47,965 nucleotides of DNA from the NCBI GenBank assembly GCA_964510165.1, contig CAZEBC010000008.1, positions 1 to 47,965 on the forward strand, read 5' to 3'. Positions within the stretch are counted from its first letter, which is position 1. Each line of letters opens with the position of its first letter. A program made the position numbers. Shown here in pieces: positions 33,001 through 39,000 of the stretch. The stretch is from an uncultured bacterium. Its GTDB lineage: Bacteria > Abyssobacteria > SURF-5.

Positions 33001-36000
33001 TAGTTGAATACACGCCGACAGTTCCCGAGTTGCTGATAACCCTCGGCATATGGGCCATCGGCTTCCTCATTCTCACCGTTCTTTATAAGATAGCCGTCTC
33101 GGTGAAGGAGGAACTGGCGGCCTGAGTTTGCGCAAAATATCGAGTAATGGCAGGGGCACGGTGGGCCGTGCCCCTTTTTTTGATCTCGTCTGTATGTGTA
33201 AGTTTGTGCTATAATCCAGACAAGAAGGAGTATCTCACTTGGTCGCAAGAATGGAGTCGCGAGGGGAGAACTGGCTCGGAGAACGCGTGGCGGAAATTCT
33301 CGATACGCCGCGTGGCCAGAAGTTTGACATAGTCACGGATACTACCGAGTTTATGGGCATTCGCCGGGGTCACGTGCTTCGGTTGGGTGGACGCCACTTC
33401 CTGGTCACAGGCAACGTGTATGAGCCAAGATTCGGCCTGAGCGATGAGCCCAAGTATTGGGTGAAGAAGGCTGTGGAGCTGGAAACAGGCGCCCGGCTTA
33501 TCGTAAAGCTCGCTCATTACGAAGAGTTCATCATACGCATCGGCAGGCTTCGGATACGGTGCTATAGAGACCCGCACAAGGAGAGCCGGGTGCTTGAGCT
33601 CGTTCGCGGCAGCCCTCATTTCATGCAGGGTGAATGTCTTTTCGATGAACGCGGAAACGAGGTCAGGATCGTTGAGTTCATCCCCGGCAAGAGCATCTTC
33701 GAGTTGCTTCTCGAACTCCGTATGTCGCATGAGGAGTATTTTCATTCATTATTTCCCGGCATTTTGAAGAGACTCAGGGGTTGCTTCCATGCTGTCCAAT
33801 TTCTACACGACCACGGGCTGTGCCACGGCGACATCCGCAATGACCACATTTTGGTAGAGAAGGAGACCGGTGACTATCGCTGGATCGACTTCGATTTGAC
33901 GCAGGACTTCTCGGACCTCGACATATGGAGTCTCGGTAATGTGCTCCAATTCTGCGTCGGGATGGGCATGAGAACCTTTCGCGAGGTGCTTCAGTCGGAG
34001 GAATTTCCGGACCGCGTTAAACACGCCCTAAGGCCCGATGATGCTTCAGCCTTCTTCGAGCATCGCATCATGAATCTCCAGAAGATATTTCCGTATATTC
34101 CCGATTGTCTGAATGATATCCTCCTCCATTTCGCCGTCAACACCACGCGATTCTATGTTTCGGTCAATGAGATAGTGTCCGATATTGATGCGGTGCTGGA
34201 AGAAGTGGCAACAGGCTAATGCAAGTACGTCAGCTAAAACTGTTTCGAGCGAAGAAACGAATTGGGATAGGCGTTCGCCTGGCCGTCATGATAGCCGTCC
34301 TGCTCGTACTGACCACCGGTTCGTTCGCTGTTTTCAGCCTGATGAGCCAACGCCGAGAGGCGCTCGACGTCTTTGTGGATAGCTCCATCAACATGTGCAA
34401 GTCACTCGAACGCACGCTGCGCTTCAGCATGCTGGAAAATCGGCGTGACGAGATTGACTCGGCTATCAAACAAATCGTGGAAGAAGATGTCATTGACTCG
34501 GTCACGCTTGTCAGTCATAAGGGTGAACCTGTTTACGTGAGTAATCCGGATTCTGCAATGCCCGTCTTCCTAGACGATGTGCGCTGTGCAGGCTGCCACC
34601 GGCCAGGCGGGGCGACTCTGACGTACCTGCCCGGGATTGCGGGATATCAGCTTGTGGAAGAAACGAACACGGCCAGAGTTTGGCTTCCTGTCTATAATGA
34701 GCCGAAATGTTCGACCGCCGGATGTCACGCTCACTCTCCGGAAGAGACCGTGCTCGGCATCATGCAGATGGATGTCTCTTATAAGGAAATTAGCGAGATG
34801 TTGCGTCGCTCACACACTCGACTGCTCGCGCTGTCGCTAATCATGGCCTTTTCCACTTCACTAATAGTGTTGGCCCTTATTCGCCAGTGGGTGACAAAAC
34901 CTGTAAGGGAACTCCTGGGCGGCACGCGTCGCGTTGCCGACGGCGAGTTGGGACATGTGATACCTGAGGGTGAGGCCGAACTGGGCGCGTTAGCGCGAGC
35001 CTTCAACAAGATGCAACAGAATATTCTCACCAGTCAGCGCCAGTTGATAATGATCGAAAAGTTGGCGTCCATCGGAAAGCTATCTGCTTCGGTTGCCCAT
35101 GAAATCAATAATCCGCTGACCGGAATCCTCACGTTCGCCGAGGACCTTGTAGAAAGCTCCGACCCCAATGACCCCCGTCTGGCCGATTACAAGATAATCC
35201 TGCGTGAGGCGATCCGCTGTCGTCAGATCGTAAGGCAGTTGCTCGACTTCTCGCGACAGGAGACTCCTGACCTCCGTCCCGTCAACATGAATGAGGTGCT
35301 TTCGCACACGCTCAAGTTTGTCTCCAAACAGGCTGTGTTTCGAAACATTAGTATCCACACTGATTTGAGCGAGAACCTGCCTCCCGTGAAGGCGGACCCG
35401 TTGCAGCTTGAACAAGTCATCCTTGACATACTCGTGAACGCATCGGAGGCAATGCCGGACGGTGGGCAGATATTCATCGCCTCGAGCACGAATTCGAAAA
35501 CCCGAGAAATCGAGGTCTCAATCCGAGATACGGGCCCGGGCATTCCCGCGGAATACATTCAGAAGATATTTGAACCGTTTTTTTCCACGAAGGGCGGCAA
35601 GTCAATGGGTATCGGATTGGCCGTCAGTTGGAACATCGTTAGCCAGCATGGCGGCCGGCTTGAGGCCGAATCGAAGCCGGGAGAGGGCGCGACATTTCGT
35701 ATAGTGATGCCCTGGGCTGAGGAGACTCGTGCCAGCATTCGATCCTGAGCGGAGGATGTGACATGGCGGAAAGGATACATGTGCTTGTGGTGGATGACGA
35801 GGAGGTCGTGCTGCAGAGCGTTCTCAAAGTTCTAAAACCCGATGACGAACATGAGTTCCTCGTCGATACGGCTACCTCCGCCGCCGCCGGACTCCGTTTG
35901 ATGGGGCAGAGGAAATTCGATATCGTCGTCACCGACTTGATGATGCCGGGTATGGATGGACTGCAATTCATCGACCGTATCCGCCAGATTGATCGCGATA

Positions 36001-39000
36001 GCCGAATTGTCATGATCACGGGCTATGCTACTATGCGCACGGCTCTCCAAGCCTTGAGGAAGGGCGCGTTCGATTACATCGCCAAGCCGTTCACGAAAGA
36101 AGAACTCAGAAGCGTTGTAAAAAACGCCGCGCGGGCGACGCCTGCGATTGCGGAGTCTGGGGCGGGCGTCAACGCCGGTCCTCCGACTTCCGACGAACAT
36201 CGGAGTTTCTTCCACCAGACCTACGCCCGCATATGCCCGGACGGCACAATGTTTTTCGGGGTCGAGCCGGCCTTCTTCAATACGATTGGCGAGCCGCTCA
36301 GCATTGAGGTCTCCAAGCCCGGGGAGACACTGTCGCAAGGATTCCCCTTCGCCTCTATCACAAATTCCGCCATGCGAGTTTTCAATCTCCGCTCTCCCTT
36401 CAGCGGACGGGTTCTCGCTGTGAACAGAGACGCAGTCGAAAACATGAGCCTGATTCGGAAGGACCCCTATGGCGCGGGATGGCTTGTCCAGGTTGCGCCC
36501 ACTGACTTCGAGAACGAAGCGGAAAACCTCGGGACGCAAGCGAGGTGATCTCTCAATAGCCGCGATCAAGCAGAGGAATCCGCATCAATTCCCCTCGGCT
36601 CTCCGGCCGGAACAGCGGGAATTCGATTAGCGGCATGTCATCCGTGAGGACGGGTGCATCTCCGACATAGTGTCTGACCGGGTCTTCATTCAGCAAGAGA
36701 AGGGAAAGCGCGAGCTTGCCGTCCACATTCTCGCCCTCGTAGAGAGCCAAGTCCTCTCTGATCGCCGGATCGTCAAAGTAGGCGATAAAGGATTCACGGT
36801 CTATTTCAAGCCTGTCGGGCGTGCCTATCAGATAAGTCCCCGTCTTGTTGGCTGAACTCCACACCGATGTGTGGGGGAATACCTGGGTGAACGTCCTTAG
36901 CAGCATCTTGTATTGGTCTTCCGTGGAAGAGTACATGGGAATCCATTGACAGATGATTCCGTCGGCGGTCAAACGCTTTTTGCAGAGTTCATAAAATTCC
37001 TTGGTGTACAGATTCACGGTGCCTGCGCTGTAGGGTGGGGGAGGCGGGTCGATCGTAATCAGGTCATACTGCTTGTCTGACAATGAAAGATGGTTCCTGC
37101 CATCCGCGATGATTCTGCCTACGTCCGGCTCCTCAAGAACCGAGGCGTCTTCATGATAAAACTTGAAGGCCTCCACAACGTAGGGACACAACTCAACGAA
37201 ATCGGTCTGCATGCCGGCGCTTCTCGCGGAGACGAACGTAGTGCCCATCCCGAAGCACACAACCAATGCGGTGCGGGGGTTTCGTCCAAGCGCCAGCGGA
37301 AGATGCGCCATGAGCTGGGTGTCGAGGCCGAGATATGTCATGGAGACCCCGTTAGTGACTAATAAACGAGTGCCTGAATCGTCTTCCGCGACAGCCACCG
37401 CCGCAGTCGCGTCCTCGTCGAAAGCGAGCACCTCCCAGTTCTGCTCTGTGCGCCTCTCGAGCAGCATTACCGAAAGGTCCTTCATAAGGTCGTTTCCCAA
37501 GGGAAAGCCCGCAATCGGCACGACAATCAGCCCAGCGGCTATCCATTCGCGCGAAGAGCCGCCCTCCTCTCGCCTTGAGAGCGCCATCAGCAACCATCCG
37601 CAGGTCATACTTGTCAGCACCAGCAGAAGCATGCTGTCTTTCGAGCCAATGAGGGGGATTAAGACAAATCCGGCGAGAAAAGAGCCCGCAATCGCGCCAA
37701 CTGTATTGACTGCGTATAACGTACCCGTCTGCTTTCCTATCGTACCGAGACTGCGGGCGTACGTCCGGACGACTACCGGGAAAATAGCGCCCATGAGCAG
37801 GGTTGGCGGGAGAACCACCACGAAGACGCCGATGAGATTCCGGGATAGATAGCTCAGTGGTTCGACACCGAGTGAATAGGGCATGAACGGCAGCCAGCGG
37901 AACAAGAGCAATCCTGCAATGACGGTCAATCCTAGAACGATCTCAAGCCAGCCGAACATCCGAAGAGGATGCTTCAAGCCATCTGCAATTCGCGAGAAGA
38001 CGAGGCTGCCGCCTGTGATTCCAAGCAGATAGACGACCAAAATCATCGAGAACGAATAGATGGAGCTCCCAAGAAGAAACACCAATATCCTGGACCACAG
38101 AACCTCATAAGCGAGCGCCGCCATGCCGGAGACGCCGAATATGAGGATGACAACCCTCAGCGTGCCCCTCCTGTAGGTTGTCTCGGCGGGGACAGGGGCG
38201 TGCGTTGTCTCTCCCGTCTCGAATTGTTCGGCGTCGGCACGCGCTGAGAACCCGTTGAGAACGAGAGCGACTAACCCAACGAGGATGTTCAACGAGGCGG
38301 CAAGCCGCTCCGATCCAGCCATCCCGATCTGGCCCAGCAACACGAACCCTCCCAGAAAACATCCCGTCATCGCGCCGAGGGTGTTTATGGCATAGAGGGA
38401 CCCGATACCGGCGCCAGTCTCATCGCCGCGCCTTACAATGAATTTCGTCAGGACGGGCAAGGTGGCCCCCATCAGTGTCGTCGGCACAAGAAGGACCGCG
38501 ACAGAGAGCAAGAACTTTACCAAGCTCATCACATAGACGGAAGCGCCGGTCTTTTGATAGACAAACCGGTAGGCCGGATTGAGTCCTGCCAATGCGAATG
38601 GCAGTATCAAAGCCGAAAGCCCGATGCCGATCTCAAGCCACCCGTAAACCCGGATGGGGTTTCTCCGTTTGTCAATCAAGCGGCCAAACCACAGACTCCC
38701 GCACGCGAGCCCGCCCATGTATGCGACCAGAACCGTGCTTATCGAATATACAGTTATGCCGAAAATGAGGGTGAGCCTCCGTGTCCAGACGATCTCGTAA
38801 ATGAGCGCGCACATACCCGAAAGAAAAAAGAGCAGGTAGAAGGGACTTTGTGAAATCCCAGGAGTCTCACGGTTGAAAAGCGCTTTGCGAGGTTCTTCGC
38901 AGCTTGGTTGATTCGGTCGGGTTGAAGCGGCGCTACTCATCACGATTCCCTGGCGGTACGGTTTCAGTAGAGCGTGAAAGCTGGCTCTGGGAGGGTTTAA

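Follow-up and report, generated by a model that had tools for sequence, protein, structure and literature searches.

A response regulator with a lysine-less GcvH-like domain encoded beside dsrMKJOP in an uncultured Abyssobacteria genome

Genes and signals downstream of dsrP

We analyzed a 47,965-nucleotide stretch of DNA (the window) from an uncultured bacterium of a family, here f1, whose nearest named homologs belong to "Candidatus Abyssubacteria." In this window, dsrMKJOP is followed by a trio of genes for a kinase-like protein, a sensor histidine kinase, and a response regulator, the last of which is the subject of this work (Table 1). This placement of the regulator, downstream of dsrP and after the other two genes, is the one given in the genome-wide survey's note. 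The window also holds two other regulator genes, encoding Rrf2 and RsbRD_N proteins.

Table 1. Features of the window that are discussed in the text
Feature	Position (nt)	Strand	Description
Rrf2 gene	1806-2240		other regulator gene
RsbRD_N protein gene	27638-28195		other regulator gene
dsrM	28195-29187	+	in dsrMKJOP (28195-33125); Pfam set Nitrate_red_gam, Fer4_8, Fer4_11, NrfD
dsrK	29190-30815	+	dsrMKJOP Pfam set
dsrJ	30799-31191	+	three CxxCH heme motifs
dsrO	31188-31958	+	Tat-type RRNFLK start
dsrP	31968-33125	+	dsrMKJOP Pfam set
Terminator-like hairpin	33152-33175	+	10-bp stem, 8 G-C pairs, then T7; 27 nt past dsrP stop; -19.0 kcal/mol
Extended -10 promoter-like element	33207-33215	+	TGCTATAAT; 24 nt upstream of kinase-like gene
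Kinase-like protein	33239-34219	+	326 aa, TTG start; protein-kinase-like fold; K90, HGD (196-198), DFD (217-219)
Sensor histidine kinase	34219-35748	+	509 aa; TM1, periplasmic domain, TM2, HAMP, HisKA, HATPase_c (Pfam, TM segments)
Kinase motif CAGCH	34585-34599	+	aa 123-127, periplasmic domain
Kinase motif CSTAGCH	34708-34728	+	aa 164-170, periplasmic domain
Response regulator	35763-36548	+	261 aa, ATG start; Pfam, AF2 model, alignments
Regulator receiver	35934-35936 (D58 codon)	+	aa 3-124; alignment/model
Regulator linker		+	aa 129-142, disordered
Regulator GcvH-like domain	36198-36530	+	aa 146-256, lysine-less; hairpin tip S202-A203-M204-R205

The trio is tightly packed: the stop codon of the kinase-like gene overlaps the start of the histidine kinase gene by 1 nt, and the regulator's ATG, preceded by GGAGGA, lies 14 nt beyond the histidine kinase stop. 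Upstream, a terminator-like hairpin follows dsrP in the window, and a hairpin and T7 run (-26.9 kcal/mol) also occupy this position in the family locus L042; inverted repeats were read by eye, with the T-run unscored, in the spacers of L043 to L045. The nonamer TGCTATAAT, a putative promoter, lies upstream of the orthologous kinase-like gene in all seven family loci (as the variant TGATATAAT in L043), in spacers that are otherwise dissimilar. The survey's note had counted the regulator as the last gene of the dsr string. As far as these sequence signals indicate, the trio instead forms a separate operon outside the dsrMKJOP transcription unit.

The histidine kinase probably binds c-type heme in its periplasmic sensor domain, judging from motifs and homology. 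All 24 HAMP-type kinases examined carry a CxxCH and a Cx4CH motif between two transmembrane helices, and none of the 5 PAS or sCache kinases looked at for comparison does; the pair was invariant across 18 aligned sensors. A profile of these sensors matched PDB entries 3b42 (E value of 3.5e-8) and 3b47 (E value of 5.5e-4), which we take to be Geobacter sulfurreducens proteins with c-type heme in a PAS-like fold. The Pfam family Mcp40H-20_sensor matched 17 of the 18 sensors at an E value of ≤1, with the window kinase reaching only 16.8 bits against a cutoff of 27.

The kinase-like protein has a protein-kinase-like fold, with Pfam Pkinase scoring 29.2 bits (under the cutoff of 31.7) and STK17A as the top PDB sequence match (E value of 4.8e-5). 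Its AF2 model (pLDDT of 92.9, pTM of 0.89) matched PknG best in Foldseek (4y0x; E value of 1.1e-7, TM score of 0.47 to 0.48), and its K90, HGD, and DFD motifs are backed by residues invariant across 34 sequences.

The regulator and its GcvH-like domain

The open reading frame is real, and the survey's reading of it as a receiver joined to a GcvH-like domain was borne out by Pfam, AF2, and Foldseek. Pfam assigned Response_reg to residues 7 to 119 (E value of 3.3e-29; 101.7 bits against a cutoff of 30.2) and GCV_H to residues 154 to 257 (E value of 4.7e-14; 52.8 bits against a cutoff of 22.2). Pfam and NCBIfam gave these two domains alone, with no DNA-binding or enzymatic domain. The AF2 model had a mean pLDDT of 89.7, falling below 50 in the linker only; block means for residues 1 to 120 were 87 to 98, and the C-terminal domain was modeled at high confidence. 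The top Foldseek match of the C-terminal half was the Escherichia coli H-protein (3a8i_E; TM score of 0.77 on the target, root mean square deviation of 1.9 Å, 111 columns), and the domain also matched 3tzu by sequence (E value of 7.3e-13).

The receiver is canonical, with an intact phospho-acceptor site. In a MAFFT alignment of 120 listed homologs, every non-gap row kept D58 (118/118) as well as D11 and D12 (117/117), and T86 and K108 were present throughout (120/120), in agreement with the survey's statement that the phospho-aspartate is kept.

The lipoyl position was scored in the same 120 rows and in a joint alignment that added 14 genuine GcvH proteins. The lipoyl lysine of the latter (14/14) fell on the A203 column, which in the regulators contained D in 79 rows, N in 13, E in 9, and K in 5; the survey's count of D was reproduced, and for K the survey gave 6. 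HMMER pairwise alignments to PDB GcvH structures placed the lysine one residue later, at M204 (M 56, L 28, A 15, G 14, and K 1 among 120 rows). There was no conserved lysine at the lipoyl site in either register, and the claim that this residue is replaced held in the MAFFT, joint, and HMMER alignments alike. Opposite the GcvH lysine in the joint alignment, 78 of 119 regulators had D, and the glutamate three residues before it (14/14 in GcvH) corresponded to T in 57 of 119. Column 205, directly after M204, has no counterpart in GcvH, and the regulator hairpin is one residue longer; this column was basic in 113 of 120 rows (R 87, K 26), with R in the regulator studied here. The domain fell under all curated GcvH-type cutoffs. 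Its sequence thus predicts an output domain that cannot carry lipoate, and the description of the protein as a response regulator with a nonlipoylated GcvH-fold output is upheld by the missing lysine together with the intact phospho-acceptor site.

A tree of 75 domains (127 columns) separated the 14 genuine GcvH proteins from 61 lysine-less forms (support, 100/99). The regulator-type domains formed one group (100/95), whose sister group comprised membrane-anchored GcvH-like proteins and TM-REC-GcvH proteins. An N-terminal hydrophobic segment was present in 98 of 107 membrane-anchored proteins, and K occupied the lipoyl register in 8 of 106. A Pfam check found NrfC and NrfD genes in 15 of 20 fetched membrane-type loci versus 6 of 18 regulator loci; a membrane-type GcvH-like NrfC/NrfD cluster also occurs in the window's own genome, on another contig (C15). 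The regulator's GcvH-like domain belongs to an undescribed group that accompanies membrane respiratory modules.

We consider it very improbable that the domain is a carrier with a chemical output rather than a protein-docking one, either modified elsewhere on the hairpin (at the basic residue 205) or holding lipoate or another small molecule noncovalently. The well-preserved GcvH fold and the R or K at column 205 of the hairpin tip would suit such a role, as would the lysine that the membrane-anchored paralogs have one place past the lipoyl site (44/106 in the motif register or 53/107 in the alignment). However, a lysine in 26 of 120 rows, with R in the window protein, is not a conserved attachment site, and the glutamate that precedes the lysine in GcvH is lost along with other signature residues. 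Furthermore, lipoyl ligases do not, to our knowledge, tolerate a shifted lysine.

Occurrence within and outside the family

The full-length regulator was found in 8 of the 11 genomes G000 to G010, as the survey had reported. In all eight carriers, which belong to f1, it follows dsrMKJOP, at 60 to 70% protein identity. The order from dsrN through dsrMKJOP to the kinase-like gene, histidine kinase, and regulator lies on one contig in all six relatives fetched and is tiled across three contigs in G002. In G008, a 95%-complete genome, dsrMKJOP is present and dsrP is followed by a membrane-protein open reading frame; neither the kinase-like gene nor a full-length regulator was found in that genome. 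As a close relative that retains dsrMKJOP but has no trio, G008 shows that the dsr locus can do without these three genes.

Among 391 genomes outside f1, 17 encode a full-length regulator (18 loci), and dsr genes adjoin it in none of the 18. The survey had called the regulator a fixed member of the dsr locus. Its position is indeed kept in all eight f1 carriers, but the G008 exception and the 18 loci elsewhere confine the link with dsr to this one family. The survey's description of the family as widespread rests on a count inflated by receiver-only matches. The 1,491 matches at an E value of ≤1e-5 were reproduced, with both Pfam domains in 118 of the 120 matches listed, but when scoring was restricted to residues 143 to 261, the search gave 12 proteins out of 30 candidates. 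The larger figure therefore stems from receiver-domain words and is not a family size.

These distributions bear on whether the regulator is a dedicated dsr accessory whose GcvH-like domain specifically targets Dsr proteins such as DsrC or DsrK, which we regard as rather unlikely. Such a role would fit the position and identity conserved in f1, the presence of the closest dsrA-bearing carriers of other families (G028, G168, G198, and G348) among the best-scoring homologs, and the restriction of the co-encoded kinase-like protein to dsrA genomes. Outside f1, all seven genomes with the kinase-like gene have dsrA (Fisher P = 1.3e-8), and it is this gene of the trio that tracks dsr phyletically. 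Against a dedicated role stand the trio's own promoter-like element and the hairpin after dsrP, the retention of dsrMKJOP without the regulator in G008, and the lack of dsr neighbors outside f1. The regulator itself is only marginally enriched in dsrA genomes (Fisher P = 0.04): 4 of its 17 carriers have dsrA and 13 do not, and it is absent from 28 of 32 dsrA-bearing genomes outside f1.

Outside f1, the regulator gene directly adjoins a histidine kinase gene at 13 of 18 loci, and 16 of the 18 have one no more than two genes away. Two other families, represented by G168 and G198, also have the trio, with no dsr genes nearby. The kinase-like gene was found beside the regulator in 2 of 18 loci, NrfC/NrfD genes in 6, a gene for an approximately 1,060-amino-acid HEAT/WD40 protein in 4, and none of these in 6. 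Since neighbors vary by clade, a single conserved partner of the regulator may not exist.

This variation would also suit a receiver that merely drains phosphoryl groups from the kinase, like some single-domain receivers, with the GcvH-like domain as a passive remnant. So would the second regulator that accompanies it in several loci, as in G153 (a histidine kinase, a lone REC, then REC-GcvH) and in f63 and f120 (a short and a long form in tandem). We judge such a phosphate sink improbable. Conservation of the C-terminal domain extends across phyla and includes residues that are invariant or nearly so in the regulator family but not shared by genuine GcvH, namely Q192 (119/119), E168 (107/119), and a basic residue 205 (113/120); together with the confident model, this points to a domain under selection for a role of its own. 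Still less probable, in our view, is indirect transcriptional control, in which the phosphorylated regulator would modulate a DNA-binding regulator or a sigma-54 activator that sets dsr or respiratory transcription. Related membrane-type loci do encode the same kinase family with a sigma-54 activator, and the Rrf2 and RsbRD_N genes lie in the window, but no regulator of either kind is part of the trio or conserved beside this regulator type.

Proposed mode of action and known systems

On balance, we favor, with modest confidence, a working response regulator whose lysine-less GcvH-fold output binds another protein and is neither a lipoate carrier nor DNA binding, and whose gene closes a three-gene operon beside, but outside, dsrMKJOP in one family. 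It is most likely heme sensed, phospho-switched, and protein binding. The periplasmic domain of the histidine kinase, with c-type heme at CxxCH and Cx4CH, would report periplasmic redox or ligand state, as motifs and homology suggest. The adjacency of the genes and the intact receiver residues point to phosphorylation of D58 by this kinase, which may alter the reach of the flexibly linked GcvH-like domain and allow it to bind a partner.

A first candidate partner is the co-encoded kinase-like protein. The two genes co-occur (4 of 7 versus 13 of 384 genomes; Fisher P = 8e-5, with related genomes not independent). Folding the two proteins as a complex scored 0.48 (runs of 0.45, 0.50, and 0.48; best of three controls, 0.00), classed as weak support and in a range where, by the calibration of the method, most passes are wrong unless the pair was a likely one beforehand. 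The runs agreed in at least 36% of contacts, with a partner pLDDT of at least 77. Of the 157 solved complexes used for calibration, 116 reached the pass mark, as did 2 of 215 mismatched pairs; passes at ≤0.60 comprised only 18 of the 157 solved complexes and both mismatches. A second candidate is the cytoplasmic face of a membrane module of the NrfD type, which here would be DsrMKJOP, because the sister paralogs are encoded inside NrfC/NrfD operons. As DsrO is Tat exported, any such contact would have to be with DsrK or with the loops of DsrM or DsrP.

The membrane-anchored paralogs resemble the regulator in being lysine-less and encoded with the same heme-motif kinase family, and fused TM and REC forms link the two architectures. 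They differ in several respects: they have an N-terminal TM helix and extend about 60 residues further at the C terminus, their hairpin is as long as that of GcvH, and most lack a receiver. The regulator lacks this helix and extension, and an NrfCD-linked function may therefore not carry over to it. No description of these paralogs, which databases name "glycine cleavage system protein H," was found in the literature searched. No paper on the receiver-GcvH architecture was found in literature searches either; it appears only with automatically assigned labels, for example [quoted passage not shown]

The sensor resembles 3b42 and 3b47, the periplasmic sensors of two methyl-accepting chemotaxis proteins, but in the window the domain signals to a HAMP histidine kinase instead of a chemoreceptor. 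The CxxCH of 3b42 and 3b47 corresponds in the alignment to the second motif of the kinase family, which is Cx4CH, and the family has an extra invariant CxxCH about 43 residues earlier. CheY-type and adaptor-type regulators have non-DNA-binding, protein-binding outputs; the regulator shares with them a canonical receiver, an adjacent cognate kinase, the lack of a DNA-binding domain, and a presumed protein-binding output, but its output is a GcvH fold. With GcvH itself it has in common the fold and the structural motifs G166, P212-x-S-G, N221, and G239-W240. Unlike GcvH, it carries a receiver and has lost the E, H, and Y residues of the GcvH signature, and its score is 55 bits where the cutoff is 117; a genuine gcvH lies elsewhere in the genome (contig C132, 145 bits). 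Finally, the GcvH-like lipoate-binding proteins (LbpA) of the sHdr sulfur oxidation system are encoded with genes of sulfur energy metabolism (PMC6067878). The regulator differs from LbpA in having a receiver and no lipoyl lysine, and in f1 it is encoded beside reductive-type dsr genes.

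A response regulator with a GcvH-fold output

Pfam placed a receiver domain at aa 7 to 119 of the regulator (PF00072; 101.7 bits versus a cutoff of 30.2) and a GCV_H domain at aa 154 to 257 (52.8 bits, which exceeds the cutoff). The closest named homologs come from "Candidatus Abyssubacteria" metagenome-assembled genomes (MAGs; 80% and 68% identity). An AlphaFold2 model built on 120 homologs (mean pLDDT, 89.7) comprises a (beta-alpha)5 receiver (aa 3 to 124; block means of 87 to 98), a disordered linker (aa 129 to 142), and a beta-rich C-terminal domain (aa 146 to 256). In Foldseek searches, the top structural match of the receiver was 3jte and that of the C-terminal domain was the Escherichia coli H-protein (3a8i_E; E value, 7.7e-11), with a TM score on the target of 0.77 and a root mean square deviation of 1.9 Å over 111 columns, i.e., the GcvH fold. 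The best Protein Atlas matches of the C-terminal domain (0.82 to 0.84, under the lead level of 0.9) were likewise all GCV_H clusters. The receiver has the residues of a response regulator, namely, an acidic pocket, a phospho-acceptor aspartate, and Thr/Ser and Lys switch residues (D11, D12, D58, T86, and K108, conserved in 117 to 120 of 120 homologs).

The lipoyl lysine is absent from the regulator, a point on which three alignments concur. The GcvH lysine fell on M204 in HMMER pairwise alignments with five PDB GcvH proteins, and on A203 in MAFFT alignments, both with the genuine GcvH encoded on contig C132 of the same genome and with 14 genuine GcvH proteins from other genomes. Across the 120 rows of the family alignment, D is the main residue in column 203 (79 rows), which also contains N (13), E (9), and K (5). 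In column 204, M (56), L (28), A (15), and G (14) occur, with K in 1 row, and in column 205 most rows have R (87) or K (26). Relative to GcvH, this last column is inserted (gapped in 14 of 14 genuine proteins), so that the hairpin is one residue longer than that of GcvH, and the model places S202-A203-M204-R205 at its tip. The glutamate that precedes the lysine in 14 of 14 GcvH proteins is replaced (by T in 57 of 119 family rows), and neither the Y nor the H of the N-terminal motif, both present in 14 of 14 GcvH proteins, is kept in the regulator family; the E-S/A-x-K lipoyl-lysine motif was not found in the regulator. Scores of the C-terminal domain lay under the cutoffs of the GcvH models (TIGR00527, 55.3 bits versus 117; PRK01202, 47 versus 115.85) and also of the curated GcvH-like families NF045810 (GcvH_rel_desulf; 26.6 versus 150) and TIGR03077 (not_gcvH; 25.3 versus 144.05). 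We conclude that the regulator is genuine and that its output has a GcvH fold that is not lipoylated.

Domain searches, alignments, and the model all bear out the genome-wide survey's note in describing a two-domain protein without the lysine. Two of its counts differ slightly from ours: the lysine column holds K in 5 rows rather than 6, and the receiver aspartate, rightly given as conserved, is kept in 118 of 118 rows rather than 116 of 116. Its figure of 1,491 homologs does not stand as a measure of family size. When residues 143 to 261 were scored alone against the protein collection, 30 word-index candidates yielded 12 matches (a count that is itself no estimate of family size), so that a probably large share of the 1,491 consists of proteins with the receiver only. 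A contig search with the full-length alignment was discarded, as its patterns were receiver derived; 78 of the 80 loci encoded ordinary regulators, and only L047 and L048, which were left out of the later comparisons, encoded full-length members. We considered the macro-domain gene of the window as part of a possible modification system of the GcvH-L/sirtuin type and rejected it, since it lies 33 kb away and no sirtuin was seen.

Features of the window and of the related gene cluster elsewhere in the same genome
Feature	Position	Strand	Remarks
Macro-domain gene	2377-2940		
HmcE/TmcC-like membrane protein	2937-3698		Upstream of first dsrAB copy
HmcF/TmcB/DsrK-like receiver fusion	3717-5432		
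PAS histidine kinase	5514-6947		
Perfect direct repeat, 2,622 bp	7818-10439 and 22106-24727		dsrA, dsrB, DsrD-like ORF
Pyridine-nucleotide-disulfide oxidoreductase with C-terminal rhodanese domain	20366-22072		Between qmoC and second dsrA
Carbon-nitrogen hydrolase (nitrilase family)	26182-27084		Between dsrN and dsrC
Terminator-like hairpin	33152-33175		10 bp, G+C rich, T7 tail; after dsrP stop (33125)
Promoter-like nonamer TGCTATAAT	33207-33215		24 nt upstream of kinase-like gene
Regulator ORF	35763-36548	+	261 residues
Membrane-type GcvH-like cluster	Contig C15, about 27.5-35.9 kb (L007:7534-15858)		

A separate operon beside the dsr genes

The window encodes dsrAB(D), sat, aprBA, qmoABC, a second dsrAB(D), dsrN, a nitrilase-family gene (kept in 6 of 6 family loci), dsrC, an RsbRD_N protein, and dsrMKJOP. 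The RsbRD_N protein presumably occupies the position held by dsrT in other sulfate reducers. A second unusual regulator, an HmcF/TmcB/DsrK-like Fe-S/CCG protein with a receiver fused at its C terminus, is encoded upstream of the first dsrAB copy, between the genes of an HmcE/TmcC-like membrane protein and a PAS histidine kinase. The two copies of the 2,622-bp repeat flank sat-aprBA-qmoABC. In another genome of the family (G006), two dsrA copies also lie on one contig, about 14.4 kb apart, and in five others the contig stops right at dsrN and no dsrA was found; the dsrABD repeat thus seems to be genuine and to disrupt assemblies. It may be the reason why dsrAB were reported missing from Abyssubacteria MAGs; the sections available of the description of that group report sat and aprAB, and no dsrAB, in its two genomes (PMC6121073).

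The regulator is the last of three genes downstream of dsrMKJOP, after a kinase-like gene and a sensor histidine kinase gene. The two kinase genes overlap by 1 base, and the putative cognate HAMP-HisKA-HATPase_c kinase ends 14 nt upstream of the regulator, whose start is preceded by GGAGGA. The promoter-like nonamer in front of the trio was conserved in 7 of 7 family loci (TGATATAAT in one locus) despite differing spacers. A hairpin with a T7 run was likewise scored downstream of dsrP in one relative (L042), and inverted repeats without a scored T run were readable in the corresponding spacers of three further loci. These signals suggest that the trio forms a separate three-gene operon; rather than features of cotranscription with the dsr genes, the regulator has promoter-like and terminator-like signals of its own.

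A full-length regulator was present in 8 of the 10 genomes of the family (including that of the window), and it adjoined dsrMKJOP in all 8. The order from dsrN through dsrMKJOP to the kinase-like gene, kinase, and regulator was found on a single contig in 6 of 6 relatives fetched and was tiled over three contigs in a further genome (G002), which confirms the earlier observation of a shared position in relatives. In G003 (77% complete), we found no DsrK match, kinase-like gene, or full-length regulator. In G008 (95% complete), a 6.5-kb contig carries a dsrT-like gene through dsrMKJOP, followed downstream of dsrP by a membrane-protein ORF that extends as far as the end of the contig; searches of the genome detected no kinase-like gene and no regulator.

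Outside the family, 17 of 391 genomes carried a full-length member (22 genes at 18 loci), as read from the best 150 matches, with 527 beyond these among which weaker members could be missed. Apart from DsrO/DsrP-like NrfC/NrfD genes, none of the 18 loci contained dsr genes. dsrA occurred in 32 of the 391 genomes, including 4 of the 17 carriers (G028, G168, G198, and G348), each time on a different contig from the regulator, which was missing from 28 of the 32. The regulator thus did not follow dsrAB in its phyletic distribution (Fisher test for co-occurrence with dsrA outside the family, 0.04). Because no locus outside the family lies beside dsr genes and most dsrA genomes there lack the regulator, the dsr link characterizes this bacterial family rather than the protein family. 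The description of the regulator as a fixed member of the dsr locus accordingly holds for its position in the 8 carriers of the family and fails for G008 and for the 18 loci elsewhere.

Sensor kinases and the kinase-like protein

Two transmembrane (TM) segments of the window's kinase bracket a domain of about 150 residues with two heme motifs, CAGCH (aa 123) and CSTAGCH (aa 164). All 24 HAMP-type kinases that we examined carry both motifs; they comprise the window's kinase, a paralog on contig C15 of the same genome, 6 family orthologs, 7 kinases from regulator loci, and 9 from loci of the membrane-anchored GcvH-like proteins described below. The motifs were found in none of 5 PAS or sCache kinases examined. 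Among 18 aligned sensors, C81, C84, H85, N118, C122, C127, and H128 are invariant. The sensor profile matched two chemoreceptor sensor domains of the PDB, 3b42 (E value, 3.5e-8) and 3b47 (5.5e-4), whose CxxCH aligned to the second kinase motif and whose structures we take to hold c-type heme. With the Pfam model of this type of sensor domain, 17 of 18 members were matched at an E value of ≤1 (best, 1.7e-7), and the window's own sensor scored 16.8 bits (cutoff, 27). The periplasmic domain is thus a putative heme-based sensor.

At the 18 regulator loci outside the family, a histidine kinase was directly adjacent to the regulator in 13 cases and within two genes in 16. It was of the HAMP type with heme motifs at 7 loci, of the PAS type at 3, and of the sCache type at 6. 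The kinase-like gene lay immediately upstream of the kinase at 2 loci (G168 and G198). A six-frame HMM scan detected NrfC plus NrfD genes at 6 loci from four families, and at 5 of these 6 the cluster includes a longer regulator (372 to 391 aa), in which a TM helix precedes the receiver and GcvH-like domains and an extension follows them at the C terminus. The window's regulator has neither a TM segment nor such an extension. Four other-family loci from four families (L129, L130, L134, and L135) share a different arrangement, in which the next product after an sCache-HAMP kinase and a receiver-GcvH regulator is a conserved protein of about 1,060 aa that combines HEAT repeats and a WD40-like propeller.

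The kinase-like protein, encoded at 33239 to 34219, scored 29.2 with the Pfam Pkinase model (cutoff, 31.7), and its structural model (pLDDT, 92.9) resembles protein kinases, with PknG (4y0x) as the best match (E value, 1.1e-7; TM score, about 0.47). K90, H196-G197-D198, and D217-x-D219 are conserved across 34 members of its family, which is small (373 representatives at an E value of ≤0.001 and 72 at ≤1e-30). The gene was present in 8 of the 10 family genomes and in 7 others of the 401-genome sample. All 7 of these others carry dsrA, versus 32 of 391 in the background (Fisher test, 1.3e-8, or 1.9e-7 when the two genomes of one family are counted once; related genomes are not independent). In the other dsrA-bearing genomes, no dsr gene was found beside the kinase-like gene (L164 to L167), save a DsrO-like gene in L166. 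Kinase-like paralogs in the window's family adjoin other two-component genes.

The regulator was found in 4 of the 7 carriers of the kinase-like gene outside the family, versus 13 of the 384 other genomes (Fisher test, 8e-5). Complex folding of the two proteins gave a score of 0.48 (runs, 0.45, 0.50, and 0.48), versus 0.00 for the best of three controls; the runs shared at least 36% of their contacts, with a partner pLDDT of at least 77. In calibration, 116 of 157 solved complexes passed this mark, as did 2 of 215 mismatched pairs; at scores of 0.60 or under, only 18 of the 157 passed, together with both of those mismatches. The verdict for this pair was weak support. With the conserved operon as a prior, the folded complex leaves the chances about evenly balanced that the kinase-like protein would bind the regulator.

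Lysine-less GcvH-like proteins and a possible docking role

The genome has six GCV_H matches. Three are tandem genes on contig C15, and the others are the genuine gcvH, the regulator, and a weak match. On C15, a TetR gene is followed by the three GcvH-like genes, NrfC (with no Tat start), NrfD, a HAMP kinase with heme motifs (29% identical to the window's kinase over its full length), and two multiheme cytochromes. The three GcvH-like proteins (about 245 to 270 aa) each combine an N-terminal TM helix and a C-terminal extension with a lysine-less GcvH-like domain. When the 401-genome sample was searched with a profile built from them, this membrane type was found in many families. We inspected 20 loci of other families, one per genome, chosen as the best matches reaching the extension and hence not a random draw; NrfC and NrfD were present at 15 of them and the heme-motif kinase family at 17. 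Pfam confirmed the order GCV_H, Fer4_11, NrfD, and GCV_H, with the kinase, and a Peptidase_M54 gene and a sigma-54 activator often accompany the clusters. A Tat-type start was seen in 5 of 12 NrfC partners looked at and not in the others, and the topology is therefore not uniform.

Among 107 database clusters of the membrane type (P0122 to P0228), which databases label "glycine cleavage system protein H," 98 have an N-terminal hydrophobic segment, and K stands in the lipoyl register in 8 of 106. A lysine one residue past the canonical lipoyl position occurs in 44 of 106 (motif register) or 53 of 107 (alignment), with G as the main alternative there (38). Literature searches, with subscription journals outside their scope, retrieved no paper on GcvH-like genes with NrfC/NrfD and, as in the genome-wide survey's note, none on the receiver-GcvH architecture; some of those retrieved deal, judging by their listings, with lipoylated GcvH-L or LbpA.

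The most economical mechanism that we infer beyond the sequence features would run in three steps from sensor kinase to regulator to partner. The periplasmic heme sensor kinase would phosphorylate Asp58 of the regulator; phosphorylation would alter the reach of the flexibly tethered, protein-binding GcvH-like domain; and this domain might then bind the kinase-like protein, an NrfD-type module (here DsrMKJOP) on its cytoplasmic face, or both. Any one named target is made less likely by the varied neighborhoods, by the dispensability of the regulator in G008, and by the weak complex score. A broader proposal, which we regard as rather unlikely, is that lysine-less GcvH-like domains are cytoplasmic docking subunits of NrfD-type quinone-interacting modules and that their receiver-fused forms are phospho-switches of a respiratory complex, here DsrMKJOP with its kinase-like partner.

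If the docking proposal were true, sulfite respiration would be under posttranslational rather than transcriptional two-component control, with a periplasmic heme sensor kinase switching a respiratory complex directly by phosphorylation. The regulation of electron flow in dissimilatory sulfate/sulfite reduction is poorly known, and to our knowledge few response regulators have outputs that act on proteins instead of DNA. The locus offers a testable chain that links a putative periplasmic heme sensor kinase to a regulator whose output fold is undescribed and to a kinase-like protein that, within the sample, is confined to dsrA genomes. It further reveals a broader group, as yet undescribed, of membrane-anchored, lysine-less "glycine cleavage system H" proteins inside NrfC/NrfD operons of many families. 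At the least, a widespread misannotation is corrected; at best, these proteins would represent a new class of accessory subunits of respiratory membrane modules and a means of controlling them.

As a known equivalent of NrfCD-type loci, we considered the CbcBA/BccR cluster of Geobacter and rejected it: the available part of the paper describes a b-type/c-type cytochrome pair and contains neither "glycine" nor "NrfD." A careful maximum-likelihood tree of 75 domains (127 columns, rooted on GcvH; the odd GcvH-like proteins of L177 and L179 left out) separated genuine GcvH from all lysine-less forms (100/99). The regulator type formed a single group (100/95), and the TM-receiver-GcvH proteins formed a single group inside the membrane type (99/93). 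The regulator therefore groups with the lysine-less GcvH-like proteins of NrfC/NrfD operons, which we define as a provisional group, and not with genuine GcvH. Unlike the membrane type, with its N-terminal anchor, C-terminal extension, and position in an NrfC/NrfD operon, the window's regulator has none of these features; the NrfC/NrfD-type genes nearest to it, dsrO and dsrP, belong to the transcription unit before its own.
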